DNA of 45,399 bases from Chloroflexota bacterium (GCA_043819155.1 JBDRFC010000070.1:1-45399), one strand, 5' to 3'. Positions 5,293-40,100 are shown, numbered from the stretch's first letter. The notes: generated from the sequence alone by a model not told the origin. Numbers and translations are program-made.

Positions 5293-5429
5293 TCATACAA
5301 AAAATACATCTTATCTTTGACTAACAGCCAGTCAATAGTATAATGCGTGTTCTGGCTGGTCTGACAAGTTGTTATTAATTACAGGAAAGCCTGCAGTATA
5401 ATTCTGTTTTACTGGAAAGGGGTATAAAA

Positions 5430-6542
5430 TTGGGCAGTATAAATGTAGCCTTAATAGGAATCGGTAACTGCTGTTCTTCACTGGTGCAGGGTGTTCATTT
5501 CTATAAGAAGGCAAAGGATGTTGAATTCGTTCCCGGGCTTATGCATGTAAATCTCGGCGGCTACCACATAAGCGATATCAACTTCGTCGCCGCCTTTGAT
5601 ATTGACAAGAATAAGGTGGGCCAGGACCTGTCAAAGGCAATCATCGCACCACCTAACAATACCTTCAAATTCTGCGATGTTCCACCAAGCGGCGTAAAGG
5701 TTGAGCGGGGTATGACCCATGATGGCCTGGGCAAATACCTATCCAAAATAATAGAAAAGGCACCGGGGCCGACTGCCGACATAGTTAAGATCCTGAAGGA
5801 TACGAAGACAGATGTAGTCATAAGCTACCTTCCGGTGGGCAGCGAAGAGGCAACCAAGTGGTATGTAGAACAGATACTGGAAGCCGGTTGTGGCTTCATA
5901 AACTGCATTCCGGTATTCATTGCCCGCGAGAAATACTGGCAGCAACGCTTTGAGAAAAAGGGGTTGCCCGTAATCGGTGACGATATTAAATCCCAGGTCG
6001 GGGCGACCATAGTCCACAGAGTGCTGACGCGCCTATTCAGTGACCGCGGCGTCAAGATGGAGAAGACTTACCAGCTTAACTTTGGCGGTAATACAGATTT
6101 TCTAAATATGCTGGAACGGGAGCGCCTTGAATCCAAGAAAATATCAAAGACAAATTCCGTTACTTCCCAGCTTGATTATAAGCTTGACCCTGATGATATC
6201 CATATCGGCCCCAGTGACTATGTTCCCTGGCTTACCGACCGCAAGTTCTGCCATATCCGAATGGAGGGACGCACATTCGGCGATGTTCCCCTGAACCTGG
6301 AATTGAAACTGGAGGTATGGGATAGCCCCAACTCAGCCGGTGTGGTTATTGATGCCATACGTTGCTGCAAACTTGCCCTGGACAGAGGATTGAAAGGAGC
6401 ACTGGTTGCGCCTTCTTCCTATTTTATGAAATCTCCTCCGGTTCAATATACAGATAACGAAGCCCGCCGCCTGGTGGAGGAGTTTATTACCGAACAGCCA
6501 GCGTGCCAGCCGGTAACCAAGCCTGTAAATAATAAATCCTAG
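5430..6542 (+). CDS. ino1: myo-inositol-1-phosphate synthase
   Basis: [38 protein letters not shown]. Confidence 0.96.
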
Positions 6543-28487: not shown

Positions 28488-29489
28488 CTACTTTTTGTCG
28501 TTAATTGCCTGCAACAATGATTGACCTAATTGGTTAACCATTTCAGAATCATAATGCTCTATATTACCCTCATCGCAAAGCCGAGCAAGTTGTGGATCTA
28601 TGGGGAGTTGCCCCAGTAATGGAACGCCGATTGAACTGGCTATCTCCTCTCCACGGCTTTTGCCAAAAATGTCAATCTTCTTATCGATTTCAGGTACATA
28701 CAAATAACTCATATTCTCGAATATACCAAGGATGCGCTTTTCCATATTCCGGGTCATATTCACTGCTTTTCTAACAATCATTTCAACGAGAATTTGAGGT
28801 GTGAATACAATTACTACCCCCGAAATTGGGAATGATTGCATTAGCGTAAGCGGTGCATCGGCAGTACCCGGCGGCAGGTCAACAATAAGATAGTCAAGCT
28901 TGCCCCAGAGCACATCTTCACCAAATTGCTGGATGGCCTTCCCAATTAGCGGACCCCTCCAGACAACAGCGTCATCCTCGTTTTCTAAAATAAGATTAAT
29001 GGACATTACTTCAATCCCTGACTTCGACATTACCGGTAATATACAGCCATCGTTGCCGCCCGGTTGAACCTTGAGGCCGAACATTTTGGGTATACTCGGG
29101 CCGGTAATATCGGCATCCAGAATGCCTACTTCAAAACCCTGACGTTTTAAGGCAACTGCAATAAGGCCGGATACTAAAGACTTCCCTACTCCCCCCTTGC
29201 CGCTCATTATGGCAACAATGTGATCTATCTTATTCAGGTCTTTTGCCTTAGCATCCACATATTCTACCTTTACCTCTTTAACATCGGGTATTTTTTCGAT
29301 AGCTTCTTTTACTTCACTCTCAATCCAGATCTGTGCTGCCGGTATCAGCCCTGTTGATGCTAAAGTAACATTCACTATTCCATCGTCTGTATTAACCTCA
29401 CGTACCAGATTCAAACCAACGATACTACGTTTTGCAGCAGGCACCAGTACGTTTTCCAGGCTTTCTTTTACTTGCTCTTCAGTTATCAT
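28488..29489 (-). CDS. Mrp/NBP35 (ApbC-like) ATPase with N-terminal DUF59 domain
   Basis: SGKGGVGKS, DADITGPS, WRGP, DLPPGT, ENMS. Confidence 0.93.
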   Translation of the reverse strand: MITEEQVKESLENVLVPAAKRSIVGLNLVREVNTDDGIVNVTLASTGLIPAAQIWIESEVKEAIEKIPDVKEVKVEYVDAKAKDLNKIDHIVAIMSGKGGVGKSLVSGLIAVALKRQGFEVGILDADITGPSIPKMFGLKVQPGGNDGCILPVMSKSGIEVMSINLILENEDDAVVWRGPLIGKAIQQFGEDVLWGKLDYLIVDLPPGTADAPLTLMQSFPISGVVIVFTPQILVEMIVRKAVNMTRNMEKRILGIFENMSYLYVPEIDKKIDIFGKSRGEEIASSIGVPLLGQLPIDPQLARLCDEGNIEHYDSEMVNQLGQSLLQAINDKK

Positions 29490-29621
29490 AAAATGCTCTC
29501 CAATTCCTCCTATTATTGATTTCAGATATTTCCATGTTGCCTTTCATCGAACCGTTTTTATCTTTTCAGATATAATTTTACCTCCTGTCGATATGATGCT
29601 AAGTTATAAAAGTAGCGTTAT

Positions 29622-30020
29622 CTAGTGTAGCCTTTGCATAAGATTGGGGAGCTTACCCACTAAATAAAGCTTTGCTGCTTCGTCGATATTCTTGACATCG
29701 GTGACTACCACATCTATATTTTGGTTTTTTAAACTTTCATAAGCACCCAGGCCCATACCTCCAGCAATAATAGCCGCACAGTCTGAAACTGTTTCAATCA
29801 TACTCTTATGCTTGATATGTGCATCCGCACCATAACCATGATGGCATTCATGAGCCGATTCAGGATTTGGTTGTTCATTGGCATTATGGTGCACTATCTT
29901 AGGCCGTGTCTCTTTACATATAACTTTGCCATCTTCAACTTTGATTATAACGTAATATAATGCCCTTCCAAAATGCTGGCTAATTGAAGTTTCGTCATCA
30001 GATACAACTGCAATTCTCAT
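29622..30020 (-). CDS. NifB/NifX-family metal-cluster-binding protein, His-rich
   Basis: MRIAV...ISQHFGRA...GGMG.GA. Confidence 0.88.
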   Translation of the reverse strand: MRIAVVSDDETSISQHFGRALYYVIIKVEDGKVICKETRPKIVHHNANEQPNPESAHECHHGYGADAHIKHKSMIETVSDCAAIIAGGMGLGAYESLKNQNIDVVVTDVKNIDEAAKLYLVGKLPNLMQRLH

Positions 30021-30023
30021 TAT

Positions 30024-30362
30024 TTACTCCTCTTTTTTATTAATTTTACTTTCCCCCACAAGTTTGCACGCATTCAACTCGAAATTGCCACCCCCTATCC
30101 TTATGGCTTTACCATTAAGCAAGGCGTCAGCAATTTTCTTCCTTGACGTTGATAACACTCTTTGAAAGGTTGACCTTGAGATTCGCATCCTTTCAGCACA
30201 CTGCTCCTGCTCCAGTCCTTCTAAATCTTTTAAACGAATCGCCTCAATTTCCTCCACGGATAGGCCAACCTCTTTAAGAAATCTCAATGGTATACCAGCT
30301 GGTTTATAGTAAGATACATCAGGTAGAAACTCGACTCTACGATACTTTTTCTGTCTTGGCAT
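30024..30362 (-). CDS. DUF134 putative DNA-binding protein
   Basis: MPR.K.RRV...YKPAG...EAIRLKDLEGLEQEQCAERM.ISR.TFQR. Confidence 0.93.
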   Translation of the reverse strand: MPRQKKYRRVEFLPDVSYYKPAGIPLRFLKEVGLSVEEIEAIRLKDLEGLEQEQCAERMRISRSTFQRVLSTSRKKIADALLNGKAIRIGGGNFELNACKLVGESKINKKEE

Positions 30363-30383
30363 AAGTTAATTCTTTATTTATTG

Positions 30384-30438
30384 TTTATTATGAGCATATG
30401 CTCATAATAAATATAACATAGAATCTTTTGCCCGTCAA
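30384..30438 (-). promoter_or_regulatory. promoter with perfect 28-bp palindromic operator
   Basis: TTTATTATGAGCAT|ATGCTCATAATAAA (30384-30411) abutting TTGACG-17 bp-TATATT. Confidence 0.75.
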
Positions 30439-30505
30439 TGTTTGGGGTTAAGTGGATAAAAGTCACATGCGCAAGACTCTGCTGTAGATTATAACAAGTT
30501 ATTAT

Positions 30506-30702
30506 AGGAAGCTTAGGGATGAACTTCTTAATAGAGAGATATTTACCACCTTAACCGAGGCAAAGGTATTGATTGAGGAGTGGAGGAGGGAATATAATCA
30601 GGTACGTCCACATAGCTTCTTGGGTTATAGGCCTCCAGCTCCTGAGGCTATAATACCGGTAACTCTAACTTAACAAGTGGTACACCTTATGGGGGCAGGT
30701 CA
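30506..30702 (+). mobile_element. IS3-family transposase 3' remnant with right terminal IR
   Basis: RKLRDELLNREIFTTLTEAKVLIEEWRREYNQVRPHSFLGYRPPAPE; end GTGGTACACCTTATGGGGGCAGGTCA. Confidence 0.88.
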
Positions 30703-30841
30703 CAATTTTCCAGTTCAAACACTTTAGTTTAAGCAATCTATTATATTAAAGCTTATTTGTTATCATTAGCGTTGCAACCTAAGGTGGATAAGCCCTGTTA
30801 GCCTTAAGTTATAAACCTATGCGTGTTGCTATCTAAAACCC

Positions 30842-31282
30842 TTAACCTACTATGGTTAACAACTGGAGATATGGAATAATCACTATATCAAAAAATATTA
30901 TACCTATCACGAGGCCTGCTATATATAGTATACCCGACATTCTCCCTTCGCCGAACATCACATGCTGCCTGAAGGGGCAACCCTCAGCCATTGTTGAAAA
31001 GAAAGCCATACCAAAGGCACCAAATATCATTAGAGGTATCAGGCTTGGGGGCTCAATGTTAATTCCATCAGATAATAATGGGAATCCAGGAAAGTCTCCA
31101 CCTAAAAGATTAAAAATAGAGAAGCCAATTACACCACCTATGATTATACCTATAAGCCCTTTAAGCCGATAAGTATCCCTGACCAGATAGAAATCTCTAA
31201 TGCCGCTTATGGTACAGAACCTTGACCTCTGTCCCATATAGCCAAGTATTAACCCGATTACCAAAGTTACTACACCAATCAT
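30842..31282 (-). CDS. YeeE/YedE-family transporter, C-half subunit
   Basis: GQRSRFCTISGIRD, AEGCPFR; start at a TAATG overlap with AGGAGG RBS. Confidence 0.85.
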   Translation of the reverse strand: MIGVVTLVIGLILGYMGQRSRFCTISGIRDFYLVRDTYRLKGLIGIIIGGVIGFSIFNLLGGDFPGFPLLSDGINIEPPSLIPLMIFGAFGMAFFSTMAEGCPFRQHVMFGEGRMSGILYIAGLVIGIIFFDIVIIPYLQLLTIVG

Positions 31283-31788
31283 TACATCCTCCTGACCTTC
31301 CACTTAATATATTCGCAGGCAACAATAACCCCAATAATTATAGTAGCCAGGATTATTGCAGCGAATATCCATCCGTATGAAACCAACACTGCTGTTCTTA
31401 TGGGGCATGAACCCCATAGTAAGCCAAGATTGACAATCAGGAATCCAAAAATAAATGCTAATAGATTTTCCCTTACCGGACCACGTCTAAATTTGAATTC
31501 CTTGTTTTTTACGGCAGCTATAAACGAACCTATTATCCAACCAACCGGAGTAAGCACAGGCACGGCAACAAAAATACCATGTATAGTGAATTCCGTTCCG
31601 AATACATTATTTATTAACCAGTTTACCAGATTACTCGGATGAGTGATTGCACAAACCCCCTGGCCAACAGGTGGCTGGACTTCAAAATATCCCTGTGCAG
31701 CGGCTGCCAGTATTCCCATCGTCAAACCCGTTATAAGAGCCAAGTTTGCACTTAACTTAAAATTATATTTGAGTTTAGGCAGTTTCAT
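31282..31788 (-). CDS. YeeE/YedE-family transporter, N-half subunit
   Basis: GVCAITH, WGSCPIR; aligns by eye with the N-half of 35840-36955. Confidence 0.8.
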   Translation of the reverse strand: MKLPKLKYNFKLSANLALITGLTMGILAAAAQGYFEVQPPVGQGVCAITHPSNLVNWLINNVFGTEFTIHGIFVAVPVLTPVGWIIGSFIAAVKNKEFKFRRGPVRENLLAFIFGFLIVNLGLLWGSCPIRTAVLVSYGWIFAAIILATIIIGVIVACEYIKWKVRRM

Positions 31789-31869
31789 TTAATTCGATCC
31801 ACCTCCTTTCGGGCTGACTTTGGTGTATGTTATATGCCTGTGAGATTATTAGTTATGTCATCTTCCTCT

Positions 31870-32739
31870 CTATCGAGAGATAACTTTTTTAACTGCTTCG
31901 GGTATATGTTTGATTAATTCTGCGATACCTGTTGCCGGCGTAGGATTGGCTAACTCACCCATGAACCTGTTAATCTGAGCCGCTTTTATGCAGGCATCAG
32001 CCGGTTCAAGTCCACTGTATATCAATGCCGACACTATACCTGTTATAGTGTCCCCCGTTCCACCTATCGCCTCAAGGGCTGGTACCAGAGGCTCTTTAAC
32101 TACTCCAACTACTTCACCATCAACAATAACATGGTCTATAGCAGCTTTAACTATCATATAACGTGGCGTATCTCCATGTTCGTAAGCTTCTTTGCTTAAC
32201 CTGGCGACATCAGTATTGTCAACCTCAAATATAAAATGCTGTACATATGCCGGATGTGCAGCATCCTGGTCTGCCAGGAAACTCAGTTCACCCGGGTCAG
32301 GGGTAAATAGATCAAACTTTTTACTCAGCCCGATAGCCTTAGCATTTAATAGAGCCCCGGCGTCAGCTATGAAAAACGGTTTTCTCTCCATATTTTCCAC
32401 TGTCTCTACCAGTTTTATAAATTGTTCCCTTGTTGGTAGTATATAGTGAATGGTAAGAACTTCAGGTTTCAGATTGACGACTTCATCATTTAAGAACTTG
32501 AACAATTTCAAGCTCCCTTCACCCATGCCGGTATCCCCAATAACCACAGCATGTGGTTCTTGGATATCAAGGGCTTGACACGTAGCCGACGCTGCCGAAA
32601 TCATAGCCGCAGTTCCGATGGTTACATATTCGCTTTCAAGGGTATAATCCCCTATAGTCAGCTTATCTCCATTATACTTACATGGTCCATATGTAAGAGG
32701 CATATCCTCAATCGGCATGGTACCAACCAAAAGAAGCAT
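31870..32739 (-). CDS. ribokinase-fold (NAD(P)HX dehydratase/sugar-kinase-like) protein, copy 2
   Basis: IADAG, FTPDPGEL.FLAD..A.HPAY, EAIGGTGDTITG; paralog of 34386-35267. Confidence 0.8.
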   Translation of the reverse strand: MLLLVGTMPIEDMPLTYGPCKYNGDKLTIGDYTLESEYVTIGTAAMISAASATCQALDIQEPHAVVIGDTGMGEGSLKLFKFLNDEVVNLKPEVLTIHYILPTREQFIKLVETVENMERKPFFIADAGALLNAKAIGLSKKFDLFTPDPGELSFLADQDAAHPAYVQHFIFEVDNTDVARLSKEAYEHGDTPRYMIVKAAIDHVIVDGEVVGVVKEPLVPALEAIGGTGDTITGIVSALIYSGLEPADACIKAAQINRFMGELANPTPATGIAELIKHIPEAVKKVISR

Positions 32740-32740
32740 T

Positions 32741-33292
32741 TTACTTACCCTTCCTTTCCTTCTTGAATAATTCTAAAGCTTTCAGATAGGCGTGCTCCAT
32801 AGTGTAGGCACATATAGTCTTCCCCAGCTCCCTAGGCTTGGGACCTTTACCAATTACGGTTCCTGTAAGTCTCAGACCGAGCCATGGTATATCCGGTCAG
32901 CCACCCCCTGAAATATTAACTATTGTACCGGTTCCCTTCTGGTATGTAATTTTCATATTGCCACATCGGACCATTGTATAATCAGGAAAGTCCGTTGTTT
33001 TAATCAATGTTGTTAGATATACGGGCACCAGCTTTGTATCTTTAGGCATAAATAATATATCCAGGATAAGCACATTTTTCTCATCCAGGATACGTTCCGC
33101 TTCATCGACTTCTGGCGCGCTAAGTTCAATTGCCAGGTCACAACCGGTTCTATATTCCGGCGGGGGCGCTACTTCCTTTATCTTTAGCCCGGCTTCCTCG
33201 AGTACGTGTTTAGCACGCAAGGCATGATAAATATAATCAAAAACAATTAGTGCTTTTTCTTCTTCCAGTGCTTCTTTCGCCAATTGGCTCAC
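32741..33292 (-). CDS. DUF3343-domain protein, probable selenoprotein (Sec at codon 132, UGA at 32897-32899), 183 aa
   Basis: NISGGG-TGA-PDIPWLGL...KPRELGKTICAYTME aligns with paralog NISGGG-C-PDIPYLNV...KPKDLGFTLCAVML; readthrough ends at TAA one nt before the next start. Confidence 0.88.
32866..32899 (-). promoter_or_regulatory. bacterial SECIS element candidate
   Basis: UGA-CCGGAUAUACCAUGG-CUC-GGUCU-GAG; GGUCU begins at +19 after UGA, the same offset as in the E. coli fdhF SECIS. Confidence 0.7.
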
Positions 33293-33552
33293 CTCCTCAC
33301 TTTTTTTAATTTGTCTTACTTTTATGAATTATTTTTTCTTATAATGGACATGTTTTTTAGTTCGCTTCAGTTTATTACCTAATATAAGGCCTGTCAATGA
33401 TATTACGGCTTTTTTTATTTTCCTTAAGTTTCTTAAATTAAAGAAGGGGCAAGGTATAATTCTTTAAAATTACTACCTCCCCCTCCGGTATATTTTTATT
33501 TTAGTGTTTTAGTCTTTATGTCAAGTCTACAACCCTATGTTTTCAGTATATA

Positions 33553-34146
33553 TTATATATTTATTACTTTTGGGCTATCAATTAATATATTTACTATTTC
33601 ATACATATTGCTTGCAACTCCCACCTTTAATTTATCCGTTAGTTCATAATATGCCAGGCAGGTACCACAAGATATTATATTAATCCCTTCTTTCTCTAAA
33701 AGTACCAGGGTTTCCAGAACCTCTGAACCTTCTGTGATTAGCTTCACTCCGTTATTAATAAAGATTATGCTATCTGGTTTTACTTCAGCTTCCCATATTG
33801 TATTCAGGAAAGCTTTAATCAATACCTCTCCTAGTCTTTTATCTCCTGTCCCCAACCTGTCACTTGTAATAAATATGACATATTTATCAGATACCTGTTC
33901 GTTCCGTTCATTTTGCGTCCGCCCGGCCTCATCTCCTTTAGTTATATCTACATAAAAACCGTCTTCTTTTTCTTTCGCCACAACCTGATAACCACTATTT
34001 TTGGCGAGACGCTTTATATTTTCAAAACTGGTCTTATTATCTACGATGACCGTAATCGTACCCGATTCAATCTCATCAAGCGCCTGTCTTGTATTCACAA
34101 CCGGCTTGGGGCACTCAAGGCCCCGGCAATCTATTTGCTTAACCAT
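33553..34146 (-). CDS. yedF: selenium metabolism protein YedF-like (TusA domain + DsrE-like domain)
   Basis: IDCRGLECPKPVV, G.GD..LG.VL.KAFL, NNGVKL, SCGTCL. Confidence 0.88.
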   Translation of the reverse strand: MVKQIDCRGLECPKPVVNTRQALDEIESGTITVIVDNKTSFENIKRLAKNSGYQVVAKEKEDGFYVDITKGDEAGRTQNERNEQVSDKYVIFITSDRLGTGDKRLGEVLIKAFLNTIWEAEVKPDSIIFINNGVKLITEGSEVLETLVLLEKEGINIISCGTCLAYYELTDKLKVGVASNMYEIVNILIDSPKVINI

Positions 34147-34155
34147 TTTAAGCTT

Positions 34156-34374
34156 TTATTTTCCGGGTGGGGTCAGTTTTATATGGAAATCGTCTCCCAC
34201 TTCCTCTATTTTTACATTATAGCCTTTACTTTGTGCCAGCCGGGATACGTTCTCTCTGGTAACGCTTGTCTCTGTAACAACACTTAATATTTCATTGGGA
34301 TTTTCTTCAATTGCTTTTTTTGTTCTAACAACCGGTATAGGGCAGGAAAAACCTCGTACATCGACTTCAATCAT
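34156..34374 (-). CDS. TusA/SirA-family carrier
   Basis: Start reassigned to 34374 (MIEVDVRGFSCPIPVV) after AAGGAGG. Confidence 0.92.
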   Translation of the reverse strand: MIEVDVRGFSCPIPVVRTKKAIEENPNEILSVVTETSVTRENVSRLAQSKGYNVKIEEVGDDFHIKLTPPGK

Positions 34375-34385
34375 TGTACTCCTCC

Positions 34386-35267
34386 TTATGTATAACAGAC
34401 TTCGCTCCACTTGCAAAGATACTCTTCAAATACCGCCGGGAACTGGTCAATTATCTGCCCGACCTTGGTCGCCGGTGTCGGTTTAGCATATTTGCCAGCC
34501 ATACGATTTGTTTTAGCAGCAATTACAGCCGCTTCTTTAGGTTTAAGCCCAGCATATACAAAAGCCGAGACAAGCCCGGTAATGGTATCGCCGGTGCCGC
34601 CAATAGCTTCAAGTGTTGGTACATCGGGTTCGTTTATGGTTTCCAGTATTTTTCCATCGCTGGCTATATAATCGGTCTTTCCTTTAACAAGAAGCAGCTT
34701 GGCTGCACTTCCATTATTAAAAGCAGCCTTAATTTGCTCTGGGATTTTACTGGAATCACAGTTAAAAAGATGTTCTGCGATATAAGCCGGGTGCGTAGCT
34801 TTAGGATCAGCAAGAAAGGCAATCTCTGAGGGGTCAGGTGTCAGAATATCAAATTCTGATGCCAACCCGGCTCCTTTAGCGGCATACATTGCACCGGCAT
34901 CGGCAATCATAAATGGCCGTTTTTTACTATTTTCAGCCGCCTTACATAGCTGCTTCATCAAAGCCATAATGGGTAAACAATAATGCATCACAAAAACATC
35001 CGGAGAAAGTTCATCTATATTATCTATAAGATATCTATAGAGTTCCCGGCTGCCTTTGCCATCACCGATATCCCCAACTACCAATACTTTTGGTGGCTCC
35101 AGTTTTAGATAATTAGTAGTTGTTAGTGCAGCGCTTATCATGGCGCCTGTTCCCTGGATTCGTGAAAAACGCCTGCCATCAGCCAACAAAAAGTCTCCTT
35201 CTAACTTAACCTGGCCTAAAGTCAAAGGCATATCTTTGTTTGGCACTGTACCTGCAATAAGCATCAT
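34386..35267 (-). CDS. ribokinase-fold (NAD(P)HX dehydratase/sugar-kinase-like) protein, copy 1
   Basis: IADAG, LTPDPSE, HPAY, KGKTD, EAIGGTGDTITG. Confidence 0.8.
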   Translation of the reverse strand: MMLIAGTVPNKDMPLTLGQVKLEGDFLLADGRRFSRIQGTGAMISAALTTTNYLKLEPPKVLVVGDIGDGKGSRELYRYLIDNIDELSPDVFVMHYCLPIMALMKQLCKAAENSKKRPFMIADAGAMYAAKGAGLASEFDILTPDPSEIAFLADPKATHPAYIAEHLFNCDSSKIPEQIKAAFNNGSAAKLLLVKGKTDYIASDGKILETINEPDVPTLEAIGGTGDTITGLVSAFVYAGLKPKEAAVIAAKTNRMAGKYAKPTPATKVGQIIDQFPAVFEEYLCKWSEVCYT

Positions 35268-35800
35268 TAGTTATTACCTCCGTTCCAGAGGTTAAGGCAC
35301 TCCTCCAGGGCTAAATCAAGCATTACGGCACATAGGGTAAAACCAAGATCTTTTGGCTTTGGTGCTTCAGTAAGCAATTTATCAACCAGTTCCACATTAA
35401 GGTAAGGAATATCGGGGCAGCCACCACCAGATATATTAACAATTATACCGCTGCCTTTATCAAAGGAAATCTTCATATTGCCCGCTTTAACCATGGTCCA
35501 CTGGCCGTAATCTGTAATCTTTACGATCTCACACATATCGGCAGTTCCTTTCATAAGGGGAAAGATACCAACAAAGGCAGCATCCTTCTCTTTCAATAAC
35601 CGCTCAATGCCGGCACTTTCTACAAGATTTATCTCCAGAGCCAGGTCACAGCCCATACGTAATTCTGGCGGCGGAGCGATTAGTTTAATTTCGTAATCAG
35701 CACCTTTTATAAGCTTTTCCGCTTCTATGGCGTGCGAAACTCCCTGGAAGATTACTATTCCATCACCTTTAAAAGCAATACCTTTCTTTTTAAACGCCAT
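35267..35800 (-). CDS. DUF3343-domain protein, Cys form
   Basis: AI.AEK...APPPELRMGCDLA, NISGGGCPD, GFTLCA. Confidence 0.85.
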   Translation of the reverse strand: MAFKKKGIAFKGDGIVIFQGVSHAIEAEKLIKGADYEIKLIAPPPELRMGCDLALEINLVESAGIERLLKEKDAAFVGIFPLMKGTADMCEIVKITDYGQWTMVKAGNMKISFDKGSGIIVNISGGGCPDIPYLNVELVDKLLTEAPKPKDLGFTLCAVMLDLALEECLNLWNGGNN

Positions 35801-35839
35801 TTATAAACCTCTATTACTTATTCTTTTCTTTTATTTCAA

Positions 35840-36955
35840 TTAAGCTTTCTGATGCATTAAGAAGCCGACTGTCAAACAGAAAGCAAGGCCCACAAACACT
35901 GCTATCACGGTATTAGCGCCTATACCACTCGGGCTTGAAGCCAGCAGGAAGTTATGGGAGAATGCCGCCCCTGCAATCAATCCCAGTATAAATACCCCGG
36001 CATCAGCATCTCCTTCACCCGCTATTATAAGATTACGCAATGGACAAGCGCCGGCAAAAATAAAAGCCATCCCTGCCAAGGACATACCAAGAAAGTTCCA
36101 TAAATGGTTATTGTGGGCTACCGGCTGGTTTTCAAATCCCCAGCTATAGATAATATCATTGCCGATTAAGGTTCCCTCGGCGAAATTACCAACTATATAG
36201 TTTGTAACTAAAGCACCGACTATTATTGCGATAATGCCACTTAAGAGATGCGTACTTCTGACCAGCATTACGTCACGCCAGGCACCAACGGTACAAAGTC
36301 TTGTCCTCTGGAATATAAAACCTACTGCCAGCCCAACGACGAGTGATACCGCAAGCGATGCATACATAGACCCGGGACCGCTCTCACTGGTATATATAAC
36401 ATCCAGACCCTTTGTTGTTTCAATAATGGCAAATATAAGTAATCCGACCAGAACAATTGGTATAATCAAGCCCACCAGATGATGCGTCTTGCCTGCCCTG
36501 CCCAAACTGAATCCCCTCTTCAGGAAGAAGACGGCTACCGCTATACCAACCAACAATCCGGCGAGGCCTGTAACAGCATTCAGGTCACCTCCACCGAGGC
36601 GGAGCAACAGGCGGACCGGGCAACCCAGAAACACAAGGGCGCCTATCATTGCGAAAGCGCCCAGGAAAAAACGTATTATTGGCGATGAGCCTCCCCTGGG
36701 GCGCCACTCACGGAAAGCTAATGCAGTTATGAAAGCCCCCAACCCAAAACCTATAATTTCAGGTCTTATATACTGCACCACTCCTGCCCTGTGTAAGCCT
36801 AGCGCTCCTGTAATATCCCGGATGAAGCAGGCAACACATGTGCCCATATTCCCCGGGTTACCCCAGTTCACCAGCAAAGCACCGAGGATTCCGAAGGCAA
36901 GTCCACCCAAGATGACCCATTTCTTCGGCTTGAAATATTCAATAATTGAATTCAT
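35840..36955 (-). CDS. yedE: YedE-family putative selenium transporter
   Basis: GNPGNMGTCVACFIRD..GALGLHRA.VVQY.RPEI, FLGCP.R, QRTRLC, GACPLR. Confidence 0.92.
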   Translation of the reverse strand: MNSIIEYFKPKKWVILGGLAFGILGALLVNWGNPGNMGTCVACFIRDITGALGLHRAGVVQYIRPEIIGFGLGAFITALAFREWRPRGGSSPIIRFFLGAFAMIGALVFLGCPVRLLLRLGGGDLNAVTGLAGLLVGIAVAVFFLKRGFSLGRAGKTHHLVGLIIPIVLVGLLIFAIIETTKGLDVIYTSESGPGSMYASLAVSLVVGLAVGFIFQRTRLCTVGAWRDVMLVRSTHLLSGIIAIIVGALVTNYIVGNFAEGTLIGNDIIYSWGFENQPVAHNNHLWNFLGMSLAGMAFIFAGACPLRNLIIAGEGDADAGVFILGLIAGAAFSHNFLLASSPSGIGANTVIAVFVGLAFCLTVGFLMHQKA

Positions 36956-37078
36956 TTCACATTAACCCTCCTTGAAGTAATATAACAACCTTTCTTTATA
37001 CTGAATCAGTCCACATCTATACCCCCTTATTTTACTTGAGGCTAAAAACCCATATTGTATAATAAGAACTTTTTTTAT

Positions 37079-37154
37079 TAACTATAAATAATAGCTATAG
37101 TTACTGTTGTTGTCAAGCCTTTTTCTTGACTTTGCTATTTTTTTGGATTAGATT
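37079..37154. promoter_or_regulatory. divergent promoters for yedE and the tusA-like gene, with inverted-repeat operator
   Basis: Minus strand TTGACA-17-TATTAT; plus strand TTGACT-17-TAGATT; TAACTATA-N9-TATAGTTA over the yedE -10. Confidence 0.55.
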
Positions 37155-37191
37155 AATATTGATAGTCCAATATAGAGGAGGTTGAGTAGCC

Positions 37192-37470
37192 ATGGTAGAA
37201 GTTAAAGCGAATGCTCAGCTGGATGTTCTTGGCAAGAAGTGCCCGGAGCCAAATATGCTGATTAAGAGTAAGCTGGATACAATGAACCCGGGAGATATCC
37301 TAGAGGTAGTAGGTGATGCGGAAAACAGGAGGAGTATTGAGAGATTTATTAAGATGAGAGGGCATGAAACCATCAGCGTTGCTGAAGAGGGCGATGAGTT
37401 CAGGTTGTTCTTAAAGAAAGCAGAAAAAGAAAAGGGAGACACACCAATAAGTACATGTGGGTTAAAATAG
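37192..37470 (+). CDS. TusA-family carrier with extra C-terminal Cys
   Basis: LDVLGKKCPEP; tail STCGLK; GGAGG RBS. Confidence 0.9.
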   Translation: MVEVKANAQLDVLGKKCPEPNMLIKSKLDTMNPGDILEVVGDAENRRSIERFIKMRGHETISVAEEGDEFRLFLKKAEKEKGDTPISTCGLK

Positions 37471-37597
37471 TTTGTTTTTCTCCTAATAGCAGACTTTAAA
37501 TCTATAGAATAGGTTTTTTCAGGCATATCATGTCGGTATGCCTGATTTATTATAAAAAGCCTCGAGTTTAATTGCATTTTTGCTTCTATTTATTGTA

Positions 37598-37646
37598 TGG
37601 ACAGGAGGTATAAGTAATGTTATACTCTATTTAAATATGCGCATAT
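37598..37646 (+). promoter_or_regulatory. ars-like operon promoter and operator
   Basis: TGGACA-17-TATACT, then ATATGCGCATAT palindrome. Confidence 0.6.
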
Positions 37647-37661
37647 AGGGGTGTAGTTTAT

Positions 37662-38021
37662 ATGAAAGAACTGACAAGAGCTGTGCATGCCCTCTCCGAT
37701 GAAACGCGTGTCCGCATCATCAACCTTATCATGGAGCGTGAATGCTGTGTATGTGAGGTAATGCAGGCACTCAACATTTCGCAGACACGTGCCTCACGCA
37801 ACCTGAAGATTCTATATGACGCCGGCTTTCTCAATATGCGAAACGATGGTCTTTTTACACTGTATTCCATCAATTCTGAAAGTAATGACGATTTTTACGC
37901 CCACCTTCTGCAAGCAGTTAGAAAGGACCTGCAAACAAACACTACCGCACGTAAAGACTTGCGCCAACTCGCTAAAACCAAGCGAGTAAGACCTGGTTTT
38001 GCAAGCAGATTGGTGCAATAG
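37662..38021 (+). CDS. arsR: ArsR-family metalloid-sensing repressor
   Basis: ALSDETRVRI, ECCVCEV (alpha3 As-binding-type motif). Confidence 0.9.
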   Translation: MKELTRAVHALSDETRVRIINLIMERECCVCEVMQALNISQTRASRNLKILYDAGFLNMRNDGLFTLYSINSESNDDFYAHLLQAVRKDLQTNTTARKDLRQLAKTKRVRPGFASRLVQ

Positions 38022-39056
38022 ATGCCATTTGTTGTAGAGCTACTTCAGGGTGGCTGGGATGCCCTTCTTGAATACCTATCCTTTCATGTCCTTACCTGCC
38101 TTGTACCGGCCTTCTTCATCGCCGGAGCCATTGCCGTTTTTATATCTCAGGGGGCTATTCTCAAATACTTCGGCCCTAAAGCCAACAAATTCCTATCCTA
38201 CGGCGTCGCTTCGGTTTCTGGTACCGTTCTTGCCGTCTGCTCCTGCACCATATTGCCCCTTTTCGGCGGTATCTATAAAAGGGGGGCTGGCCTGGGACCA
38301 GCCATCGCTTTTCTGTATTCCGGCCCGGCTATCAATGTGCTGGCAATCATCTATTCCGCCCGTTTGCTGGGATACGATATCGGTCTGGCACGAGCTTTGG
38401 GAGCAATCGGCTTTGCTATAATAACCGGACTTATCATGGCATGGATATTCCATAAAGAAAAGACGACCGGTGACGAGCGTGCCTTCGCCAGTATGCCTCA
38501 GGACCCGTCAGATAAAAAGATGTGGCAACTGCTGCTGTTTTTCGGTTCCCTGATAGGTATACTTGTTTTTGCCGCCTCCAAAGAATGGATTTTGACCGGC
38601 GTTGCGTTTGCCCTTTTGTTTTTTGTGTTATGGCGCTGGTTTAGCCGTCAGGATATTATCCATTGGATGAAAGAGACATGGCATTTCTTCAAATTGATAT
38701 TACCCTGGTTACTTGGCGGCGTTTTTATCGCCGGTATACTTACAGTGCTTATCCCGGGTGATGTAGTGGCTGAATGGGTGGGTGGTAATAGCATTCAAGC
38801 CAACTCACTGGCGTCTGTTTCGGGTATGCTGATGTATTTTGCCACGCTAACGGAAGTGCCCATTATCCGCGCCTTTATGGATCTGGGTATGGGCAAGGGT
38901 CCTGCGCTGGCTTTGCTTCTGGCTGGCCCTGCCGTCTCATTACCCAGTATACTGGTGTTGAGAAAAATCATGGGCTGGCGTAAAACTCTTACTTATATAG
39001 TATTGGTAGTGATTATGGCCACCCTGACAGGTTTTATCTTCGGGCAAATAGTCTAA
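38022..39056 (+). CDS. ArsP-like (DUF318) permease
   Basis: CLVPAFFIAG, AVCSC, FLYSGPAIN, MYFATLTEVP. Confidence 0.9.
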   Translation: MPFVVELLQGGWDALLEYLSFHVLTCLVPAFFIAGAIAVFISQGAILKYFGPKANKFLSYGVASVSGTVLAVCSCTILPLFGGIYKRGAGLGPAIAFLYSGPAINVLAIIYSARLLGYDIGLARALGAIGFAIITGLIMAWIFHKEKTTGDERAFASMPQDPSDKKMWQLLLFFGSLIGILVFAASKEWILTGVAFALLFFVLWRWFSRQDIIHWMKETWHFFKLILPWLLGGVFIAGILTVLIPGDVVAEWVGGNSIQANSLASVSGMLMYFATLTEVPIIRAFMDLGMGKGPALALLLAGPAVSLPSILVLRKIMGWRKTLTYIVLVVIMATLTGFIFGQIV

Positions 39057-39072
39057 AACACTGGAGGAAAAA

Positions 39073-39331
39073 ATGAAAATAAAGGTTTTAGGTCCAGGCT
39101 GTGCCAAGTGTCACAAGCTGGGGCGAGTTGTAAGAGAGGTTGTTGATGAACTTAAGTTAGACGCCACAGTTGAAGATGTTGAGGACATAATGAAGATGCT
39201 AGAATACCCCATTCTGACCACACCGGGGCTGGTAATTGATGAAGAAGTAATCATTTCGGGGCAGGTCCCATCCAAAGAAAAAGGTAATAGAGTTGATTAA
39301 GAATGCTGCTGAAAAAGGAAAGGGCTCTTGA
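39073..39331 (+). CDS. small thioredoxin-like redox disulfide protein; probable 1-nt frameshift at A5 39278-39282
   Basis: MKIKVLGPGCAKC...TPGLVID; removing one A gives the helical end PSKEKVIELIKNAAEKGKGS. Confidence 0.85.
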
Positions 39332-39422
39332 GAAAGATATAACACCCAAATTTGTGCAGCATCATGGTTATATGACAGAGTTTGTTATAAAGTAAGAATA
39401 AATTCAATGTTTTTAGGAGGTT

Positions 39423-40100
39423 ATGAGGATTATGGGTGCAGTATATCAAGCACTAGGTCTGGGCCTGATGGGTGCTATCGCCCCCTGTATTATGGCGGCT
39501 AATATCGCTGCTTTAGCCTACATCAGCCGCAGGATGACTAGCCCGAAATATACTGTATTAGCTGGCACGCTATATACTTTGGGACGCATGGTTGCATATT
39601 CTATCATTGGTATCATTATCATTATAATTGGTCATGAAATACCCGGTGTTGAAGAATTTTTTGAGAAGGGTTATTTTGTCTTAGGACCGTTTCTTATTGT
39701 TGCAGGGCTGCTTATGCTATTTATTGATAAGCTTCCCTTTTTTCAAGGAGGTGGCAGACTAACTGCACTCGGAGGCAAGGTAGCTGGTTGGGGGAAAATA
39801 GGGCCGTTTCTCCTTGGTATTATTCTCGCCCTGGCCTTTTGTCCTTATAGCGCTCTTCTGTTCTTTGGGATATTGATGCCTTCGGCCCTTCAAGCTCCTG
39901 GTGGATTCATACTTCCAGCAGTGTTTGCCTTTAGCACCGGGCTACCCGTGCTGGTAGTTGGCATGCTTTTATCTTTTGGCATAACCAGGGTTTCTTCATG
40001 GGTCAATGCAATTACCCGTTCTGAGCGCATAATACGTATAATAATTTCCACCGTCTTTATTGGAGGAGGTATATATTATGTCTATTTGTGGTTAAGATAG
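39423..40100 (+). CDS. ArsG/CcdA(DsbD)-like membrane protein
   Basis: AIAPCIMAANIAA, YTLGR, LAFCPYSA. Confidence 0.85.
   Translation: MRIMGAVYQALGLGLMGAIAPCIMAANIAALAYISRRMTSPKYTVLAGTLYTLGRMVAYSIIGIIIIIIGHEIPGVEEFFEKGYFVLGPFLIVAGLLMLFIDKLPFFQGGGRLTALGGKVAGWGKIGPFLLGIILALAFCPYSALLFFGILMPSALQAPGGFILPAVFAFSTGLPVLVVGMLLSFGITRVSSWVNAITRSERIIRIIISTVFIGGGIYYVYLWLR

Follow-up and report, generated by a model that had tools for sequence, protein, structure and literature searches.

A contig of 45,399 nucleotides from a Chloroflexota bacterium (JBDRFC010000070.1:1-45399 of assembly GCA_043819155.1; this entire stretch is referred to as the window) carries two paralogous operons, A and B, each of which encodes a YedE-type channel, a two-domain carrier with a cysteine or selenocysteine (Sec) in a conserved loop, and a divergent ribokinase-fold enzyme (CK). 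We are somewhat inclined to read them as two parallel modules for the uptake and relay of a chalcogen, most likely selenium, which would handle different selenium species or work at different affinities. New are a selenoprotein form of the carrier with a hairpin resembling a selenocysteine insertion sequence (SECIS), the conserved twin layout, and the evidence against a pair of isoforms. The source assembly (G000) is a metagenome-assembled genome (MAG) of a member of Dehalococcoidia, comprising 828 kb in 70 contigs; it is only 68% complete, so that the same-cell origin of its contigs depends on binning.

Organization of the twin modules

Eleven genes belong to the finding, ten of them on the minus strand. 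In the direction of transcription, a promoter-like site is followed by operon A, a terminator, a second promoter, and operon B, and a TusA gene is divergent from the set:

37088-37116, minus strand: promoter-like site of operon A (TTGACA-17-TATTAT; 11 of 12 consensus positions; a consensus match only)
35840-36955, minus strand: A1, YedE, single-chain candidate selenium channel of 371 amino acids (TIGR04112, 453.1 bits; four Cys motifs)
35267-35800, minus strand: A2, two-domain carrier in the Cys form, 177 amino acids (PF11823, 54.9 bits, plus DUF8182, PF26554; model with a predicted local distance difference test score, pLDDT, of 86.2)
34386-35267, minus strand: A3, CK, divergent ribokinase-fold (NnrD/ThiM-like) enzyme of 293 amino acids (PF01256, 48.8 bits)
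34156-34416, minus strand: A4, TusA-like sulfurtransferase (PF01206, 64.5 bits; CP motif; true start probably the ATG at 34374)
33553-34146, minus strand: A5, YedF, a TusA domain plus a DsrE-like domain with CGTC (TIGR03527, 233.2 bits)
33443-33486, minus strand: intrinsic terminator hairpin closing operon A, with a U-rich tail behind it
33369-33397, minus strand: promoter of operon B (TTGACAG ... GTAATAAACT)
32741-33292, minus strand: B1, carrier paralog and predicted selenoprotein with Sec132 in GGGUPDIP, 183 residues including Sec (PF11823, 57.1 bits)
32897-32899, minus strand: predicted UGA selenocysteine codon of B1
32862-32887, minus strand: SECIS-like hairpin with the core stem at 32869-32883, apical GUC, and one G.A mismatch in the window copy
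31870-32739, minus strand: B2, CK paralog of 289 amino acids (PF01256, 43.3 bits)
31282-31788, minus strand: B3, membrane protein of the YedE family resembling the N-terminal half, 168 amino acids (TIGR04112, 25.4 bits; PF04143, 21.4 bits)
30842-31303, minus strand: B4, membrane protein of the YedE family resembling the C-terminal half, 153 amino acids (TIGR04112, 66.2 bits)
37192-37470, plus strand: divergent monocistronic TusA (PF01206, 59 bits), with a terminator-like site after it at 37519-37545

A preliminary description of the window had named these genes, and all are present where it had placed them, on the minus strand except for the divergent TusA. Its proposal that the paralogous genes for carrier, kinase-fold protein, and channel are transcribed as two units is borne out by their own promoters and the terminator between them; the TTGACA at 33397-33392, which it took for the operon B promoter, is part of a promoter-like site that is conserved before the B carrier gene at 18 of 22 homologous loci (alignment and pattern count). 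Operon B is intact and conserved and shows no decay. The terminator of operon A (-21.5 kcal/mol; z -3.5) is matched by none of 200 shuffles, and comparable hairpins occupy the same place in loci L031-L033, L042, L047, and L049.

The products are paralogous: the carriers A2 and B1 are 41% identical over 164 amino acids (E 5e-48), and the CKs A3 and B2 are 43% identical over 289 amino acids (E 4e-88). Both carriers exceed the gathering score of PF11823 (Se_S_carrier/DUF3343; 25 bits), and the second domain, PF26554, is given by precomputed labels for the window's own protein and all listed homologues. Three positions are invariant in 40 diverse carrier homologues, namely C51, the loop Cys (C128 in A2), and C157; a search with the carrier model yielded no meaningful match to a solved fold (best E 0.025, TM-score below 0.3).

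The channels differ in architecture. A1 is a member of the YedE equivalog (TIGR04112; cut-off 200 bits), with an alignment spanning model positions 2-337 of 337. The two channel proteins of operon B each keep both Cys motifs of the corresponding half of YedE. B4 scores 66.2 bits with the YedE model versus at most 23.6 bits with the models of the thiosulfate importer TsuA, and B3 scores 25.4 versus 20.1 bits; judged by these profiles, both are closer to YedE than to TsuA. A B3-like gene is always paired with a B4-like gene in the loci examined, and the halves are separate open reading frames (ORFs) also in L048 and L052. The split channel is found in 4 of 401 genomes of the phylum, including G000, which has a second split YedE-like pair on contig C52 (positions 1760-2595; 83% and 79% identical to B3 and B4). 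This pair has a tRNA-Ala upstream but neither a carrier nor a CK gene there, and shows no nucleotide-level match to the window.

The carrier of module B is a predicted selenoprotein

The ORF of the B carrier halts at the TGA at 32897-32899; if this codon is read as Sec, the protein gains 51 further residues. In a pairwise alignment, the TGA sits opposite Cys128 in the loop GGGCPDIP of A2. Among the B-type loci of species genomes, the codon at this position is TGA in 12 of 23 cases and TGC or TGT in the other 11; the A-type carriers found by a motif scan all have Cys (10/10). In the metagenome loci (80 loci with 81 loop sites), nine sites are TGA, all of them B-type, and the remaining 72 are TGC or TGT, although some contigs with the TGA form may be the sources of the MAGs.

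The reading frame behind the TGA is maintained. In the 44 codons after the UGA, differences among the 12 Sec forms number 1441 at the third position versus 457 and 273 at the other two, and 1145 codon differences are synonymous versus 565 non-synonymous; this excess indicates that the downstream frame is translated and under purifying selection. A SECIS-like hairpin (consensus GGCUCGGUCUGAGCC; apical loop GUC or GUU) begins 13 nucleotides past the UGA in all Sec forms and is not present in the 11 Cys orthologues. It emerged only from the comparison of these two sets. In the alignment of the 12 sequences, 92.7% of the cells in the stem are paired versus at most 49% when the partner strand is slid. 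One pair shows a compensatory change from GC to UA, in two sequences; covariation is thin because the Sec forms are close to each other. The loop presumably resembles that of Escherichia coli fdhF.

The genes required for Sec insertion are encoded in the same assembly. The preliminary description had rightly stated that selA, selB, selC, and selD are missing from the window; they form a complete Sec machinery on contig C32, where selC (tRNA-Sec), selD, selA, and selB lie side by side. SelD on this contig itself has an in-frame TGA, as do most of the SelD matches listed for the class sample, and selU (TIGR03167) was not found in the 68% complete assembly. A second, partial selD is located on contig C50 (positions 3-617; L002), where the contig start cuts the gene; its C-terminal 204 amino acids are 53% identical to SelD of C32, and it could be a second SelD isoform or belong to a mis-binned contig.

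B1 thus combines the features by which bacterial selenoproteins are recognized: an in-frame UGA opposite Cys with a conserved frame behind it, a SECIS hairpin, and selABCD in the genome. By this comparative evidence, its TGA is a genuine selenocysteine codon. Half of the best 120 database matches to B1 (60) are no longer than 135 amino acids, and all but one of these short proteins (59) have their C-terminus precisely at ...SGG[G/A/M]; GGGCPD is present in each of the remaining 60. Since 59 of the 120 best relatives end at this point, selenoproteins of the B1 type are routinely truncated at the UGA during annotation, and the locus exposes a selenoprotein that gene callers cut off.

Sec/Cys alternation and the origin of the duplication

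According to the preliminary description, the two modules form a Sec/Cys isoform pair of the methanogen kind, in which A (Cys) and B (Sec) would be equivalent routes that are switched by selenium supply, as in the pairs of Methanococcus. Separate promoters with a terminator between the units, a residue that is Cys in one carrier and Sec in the other, and CKs that share their catalytic face would all agree with such a pair, and methanogens provide a precedent with the Sec and Cys forms of hydrogenase and formyl-methanofuran dehydrogenase described in the text of PMC11097638. The phylogeny of the carriers and the composition of related loci nevertheless make this explanation very improbable.

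In a maximum-likelihood tree of 48 carriers (unrooted; midpoint rooting for drawing only), all B-type rows form one clade (100/100), within which the 12 Sec rows (98/84) and the 11 Cys rows (99/81) each make up a clade of their own, so that a single change accounts for the Sec label. The direction of this change is not claimed, because the root was placed at the midpoint for drawing only. The A-type rows form a distant clade (100/98), and archaeal and actinobacterial homologues branch between A and B. Unlike isoforms of one protein, the two carriers are only 41% identical and fall into separate clades with homologues of other phyla between them, and their modules differ in channel architecture.

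The layout of the tandem points in the same direction. Operon A lies upstream of operon B on the same strand in 13 of the 23 B-bearing loci of species genomes, and also in further metagenome loci; 7 of the 10 loci without the tandem have less than 3 kb of upstream sequence. In 5 of the 13 tandems (L028, L039, L041, L042, and L048), both carriers have Cys, and yet the genomes concerned possess the Sec machinery (5/5 tested), including a Sec-type selD in each of them. The complete genome of a member of the same genus (G014) contains operon A alone. Because Cys/Cys tandems exist, the alternation of Sec and Cys lies between B orthologues of different genomes and not between A and B. On the strength of the tree and these loci, the two copies have diverged deeply, and a difference of Sec versus Cys does not account for the duplication. 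Module B, whose close homologues are limited to part of the order Dehalococcoidales, is best read as an old, lineage-restricted second module, not as a recent isoform of A. Of the earlier interpretation, the two paralogous units, the Sec machinery, and the intact operon B therefore stand, whereas the isoform pair is not supported.

Two loci show variants of the twin layout. A 64-kb metagenome contig of a distant lineage (L065; position 6001 onwards; about 50% identity) encodes a carrier, a CK, two successive split-channel pairs, and a second carrier-CK pair, so that the module occurs as a tandem duplicate outside the clade of the window too. In a MAG of the termite-gut type (L042; positions 5311-5973), operon A has no carrier gene, and its CK is matched only over residues 1-139 and, separately, 200-293 (35-40% identity); the A module may have degenerated here, next to a B module of the Cys type that is intact.

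The kinase-fold partner of the carrier

CK passes the threshold of PF01256 (27 bits) with 48.8 (A3) and 43.3 bits (B2) but stays far below the cut-off of the NnrD equivalog (TIGR00196; 43.8 and 39.7 versus 129.85 bits), which identifies it as a relative in the same superfamily and not as NnrD. The structural model (pLDDT 93.1) has 325 fold matches in the Protein Data Bank at E<=0.001; those listed include ribokinase-superfamily kinases and YjeF/Nnr proteins. The TM-score to TM0922 is about 0.6, and identities to the listed solved structures range from 11 to 19%. The anion-hole motif GGTGDT is invariant, and CK thus has both the fold match and the GGxGD anion hole of a ribokinase-like fold. Since a profile search retrieved only 408 cluster representatives at E up to 0.001 among 1.84 billion, CK appears to be a small, separate family.

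Several lines of evidence connect CK to the carrier. Their genes lie next to each other in almost all loci of sufficient extent, and five representatives (514-588 amino acids) are natural fusions of a whole carrier with CK. Complex prediction gives an interface confidence (ipSAE) of 0.84 (runs: 0.85, 0.83, and 0.84) versus 0.00 for the best of three controls. Of the solved complexes used for calibration, 58 of 80 attain this mark, as do 2 of 110 mismatched pairs; the calibration applies only roughly, because the prediction was run with custom alignments. The predicted contacts agree to at least 84%, and the partners have pLDDT values of 77 or more. In the predicted interface, carrier residues 121-133, which include the Cys/Sec loop, and residues 152-157, which surround C157, face CK residues 220-225 (GGTGD), 66-70, and 145-148. 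CK positions that are conserved in both types make up 21 of the 42 interface positions versus 76 of 293 overall, and type-specific positions are not enriched at the interface (6/42 versus 31/293). With one and the same catalytic face of CK in both modules, A and B would carry out the same chemistry, in which CK presumably uses ATP or ADP to modify the species borne by the loop Cys or Sec.

Selenium or sulfur as substrate

A link to selenium is seen in the gene neighbourhoods of related modules. In a sample of 201 genomes of the class, 14 (including G000) have the carrier. Eleven of the 13 others show the A-type layout YedE-carrier-CK-TusA, or the same layout cut by a contig end; in G150, the A-type layout has no YedE. 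In six of the 13 (G036, G061, G128, G145, G156, and G162), selD directly follows the A-type layout, and in five of these six, selB lies behind selD. Among the 80 metagenome loci, selD adjoins the module in nine, and one of these, L133, unites a split channel, YedF, carrier, CK, selD, and selB in one row. A5 is itself a member of the YedF family (TIGR03527 cut-off 110 bits; PF01206 plus PF02635; CGTC). External support for a role of YedE in selenium supply is indirect: the text of PMC11097638 reports that yedE mRNA of Methanococcus maripaludis increases 5.3 log2-fold upon selenium starvation. The evidence leans to selenium for both modules, given the selD operons, the gene order of L133, and the common face of the CKs.

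Alternatively, A may serve selenium and B sulfur. Module B would then import thiosulfate, polysulfide, or sulfide and pass on a persulfide, and its Sec would transfer sulfur simply as a nucleophile of higher reactivity. TsuA, an importer of thiosulfate, belongs to the YeeE/YedE family, and its NCBIfam models match B3 and B4 weakly; a GcvH-like lipoyl protein, which recalls lipoate-dependent sulfur pathways, is encoded next to B in five loci, accompanied in four of them by a dihydrolipoyl dehydrogenase. Also the text of the 2026 catalogue of prokaryotic selenoproteins lists Sec-containing members of sulfur-transfer families, such as rhodanese-related proteins. We regard a sulfur-specific B as unlikely, because B3 and B4 score higher with YedE than with TsuA models, the CKs of A and B share their catalytic face, a split-channel module lies upstream of selD-selB in L133, and B is nearly always found directly behind the selenium-type operon A.

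Several points count against selenium uptake by both modules; the low YedE scores of B3 and B4 and the absence of close B-type modules beside selD also favor sulfur for B. B3 and B4 remain below the cut-off of the YedE equivalog (25.4 and 66.2 versus 200 bits) and are YedE-like halves rather than members. Close B-type modules were never seen beside selD in the loci examined, and only those of L036 and L095 have their own TusA or YedF. The characterized relatives of YedE, TsuA/YeeE, move thiosulfate. The co-occurrence of the carrier with selD is uninformative, as selD is present in 152 of the 201 class genomes and is listed for 13 of the 14 carrier genomes. The stem of the SECIS-like hairpin contains a G.A mismatch in the window copy, and the 71 nucleotides after its UGA, folded as a single sequence, do no better than shuffles (z -0.38). 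The nearest solved relatives of CK act on small molecules, not on proteins, and the score of the carrier-CK complex is a model confidence, not a measurement. The link of these proteins to selenium is a prediction, and the text of PMC11097638 describes no clear phenotype for a yedE deletion in M. maripaludis.

It is also conceivable that one or both modules export or detoxify chalcogens, such as selenide, elemental selenium or sulfur, or tellurite. YedE could in principle transport in either direction, and genes for an ArsR regulator, an ArsP-type permease, a thioredoxin-like protein, and a DsbD-like protein adjoin the module, in a neighbourhood that is kept in L033; detoxification of selenium is raised as a possible role of YedF in the text of Lin et al. 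2015 (PMC5322559). An export function nonetheless seems hardly probable. The module sits within selD-selB operons, and yedE of M. maripaludis is induced by starvation for selenium (text of PMC11097638). Acquisition also fits the small genomes (about 1-2 Mb), which have the Sec machinery and a Sec-containing SelD.

A possible route from channel to SelD

We infer the following route, including the direction of transport, the identity of the substrate, the use of ATP, and the final transfer to SelD. A channel of the YedE family, single-chain in A and a two-gene heterodimer in B, would bring selenium species to the cytoplasmic face of the membrane. The two-domain carrier (Se_S_carrier plus DUF8182) would hold the selenium on its GGG-[Cys/Sec]-PDIP loop and dock this loop into the nucleotide/phosphate site of CK, which would carry out an ATP-dependent step on the carrier-bound species. 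Speculatively, this step could be the activation of a thiol-bound selenium oxyanion or the phosphorylation of a perselenide. TusA and YedF would then relay the product towards the selenophosphate synthetase SelD. The modules differ in channel type, in the presence of TusA and YedF only in A, in their own promoters, and in the Sec of the B carrier; in function, they would probably differ in the selenium species or affinity of the channel and in regulation, the latter because each has its own promoter.

This locus bears on the question by which route bacteria take up selenium and deliver it to selenophosphate synthetase. Its parts list is short: besides the channel and TusA/YedF, it comprises a carrier with three cysteines and a kinase-fold enzyme dedicated to it. 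In addition, nature has exchanged Cys for Sec at the residue that is predicted to react, and the geometry of docking can be predicted. Our tentative proposal, which we hold with less than even confidence, is that carrier and CK form an undescribed ATP-dependent system for the activation of selenium on a Cys/Sec loop, that the B1 clade is a new selenoprotein family, and that the tandem represents two insulated entry routes. If this were true, the carrier-CK step would supply the long-missing stage between selenium uptake and SelD, the selenium-handling residue of the B1 clade would itself be selenocysteine, and the tandem would give anaerobes with small genomes two insulated entry routes for different selenium species.

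Relation to known systems

Among characterized systems, TsuA-TsuB (YeeE-YeeD) shares with the modules a membrane protein of the PF04143 superfamily and a TusA-like cytoplasmic Cys protein, and may serve as a model for the hand-over at the channel mouth. It differs in that the TsuA models score at most 24.8 bits here versus cut-offs of 400-645 bits. To our knowledge, TsuAB has not been described together with a carrier-CK pair. The NAD(P)HX dehydratase NnrD/YjeF_C and kinases of the ThiM type have the same ribokinase-superfamily fold and GGxGD anion hole, but CK is only 11-19% identical to the listed solved structures, forms a small family of its own, and has a protein loop as its predicted substrate. 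A Sec-containing SelD is, like B1, a selenium-handling protein that itself needs selenium, but differs from it in family and chemistry. The studies of fdhTU in Campylobacter jejuni reportedly dealt with YedE (FdhT) as well as YedF (FdhU).

A further close relative among known systems is the candidate selenium system of Lin et al. 2015 (PMC5322559), whose text proposes, from comparative genomics, YedE, YedF, and a small DUF3343 protein (80-100 amino acids) as selenium genes and cites the C. jejuni fdhTU studies only for YedF. Operon A agrees with it in having a full YedE, YedF, TusA-like proteins, the PF11823 domain, and a predicted link to SelD. By contrast, DUF3343 is here the N-terminal half of a protein of 177-183 residues, and the Cys/Sec loop lies in its second domain, DUF8182. 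The main text of Lin et al. uses the word 'kinase' only in O-phosphoseryl-tRNA(Sec) kinase and names no kinase-fold partner of DUF3343; nor does that text contain a Sec form, a split channel, or a tandem second module. The isoenzyme pairs of Methanococcus, as presented in the text of PMC11097638, likewise combine Sec and Cys versions of homologous proteins in one genome, but they are alternative forms of one enzyme under regulation by selenium, whereas the proteins of A and B have 41% identity and different partners, with Cys in both carriers in several relatives.

The preliminary description knew of no characterization of this arrangement, and text searches of the literature agree: within the text covered, queries for DUF3343 and the Pfam identifiers returned no two-domain carrier, kinase-fold partner, Sec form, or tandem. 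The text of the 2026 catalogue has no entry for PF11823, PF01256, PF01206, TusA, GUP, or GGU; its supplements and BSepDB, which lie outside this search, may list the family.

Gene boundaries and neighbouring genes

The start of A3 and the stop of A2 overlap by one base. For B1, the TTG at 33283, eight nucleotides after a GGAGG, is a likelier start than the GTG at 33292, and an alternative start of B4 (ATG at 31282) would share one base with the stop of B3. An Rfam scan of positions 30300-37800 gave only a chance-level lncRNA match (E 0.26). The spacer between A and B, searched for a UGA-containing leader, holds only a mini-ORF of nine codons without TGA, which is not conserved in the alignment. 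A TusA gene lies upstream of the module, mostly in divergent orientation, in L031, L033, L035, L036, L042, L045, and L049; L028 has the reverse layout.

In five loci, a divergent gene for a GcvH-like lipoyl protein is located between A and B (L034:3327-6718, with PF01597; L035:6413-6853; L039:2275-4071; L041:3438-5210; L048:2366-4129). Four of these also encode a flavoprotein resembling dihydrolipoyl dehydrogenase; L035 has an ORF of 862 amino acids instead. L034 contains LipA/LipB-like genes too, as judged by eye from their first residues. The GcvH-like and dehydrogenase genes could provide a dithiol reductant for the module, or their position may be a coincidence.

Beside the divergent TusA, the plus strand of the window (37662-40100) encodes an ArsR regulator, an ArsP_1-type permease with a CSC motif, a Thioredoxin_3 protein, and a DsbD_2 membrane protein. 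L033 has the same set beside the module, and L054 has it beside a fragment of B1; a paralogous set (45-76% identity) is found near selD on contig C32. Downstream of operon B, the minus strand (28488-30362) encodes a DUF134 protein, a NifX-like Nitro_FeMo-Co protein, and an Fe-S P-loop ATPase of the Mrp/NUBPL type. These genes were not found in the downstream flank of L033; DUF134 occurs beside A-type modules in L105 and L138.

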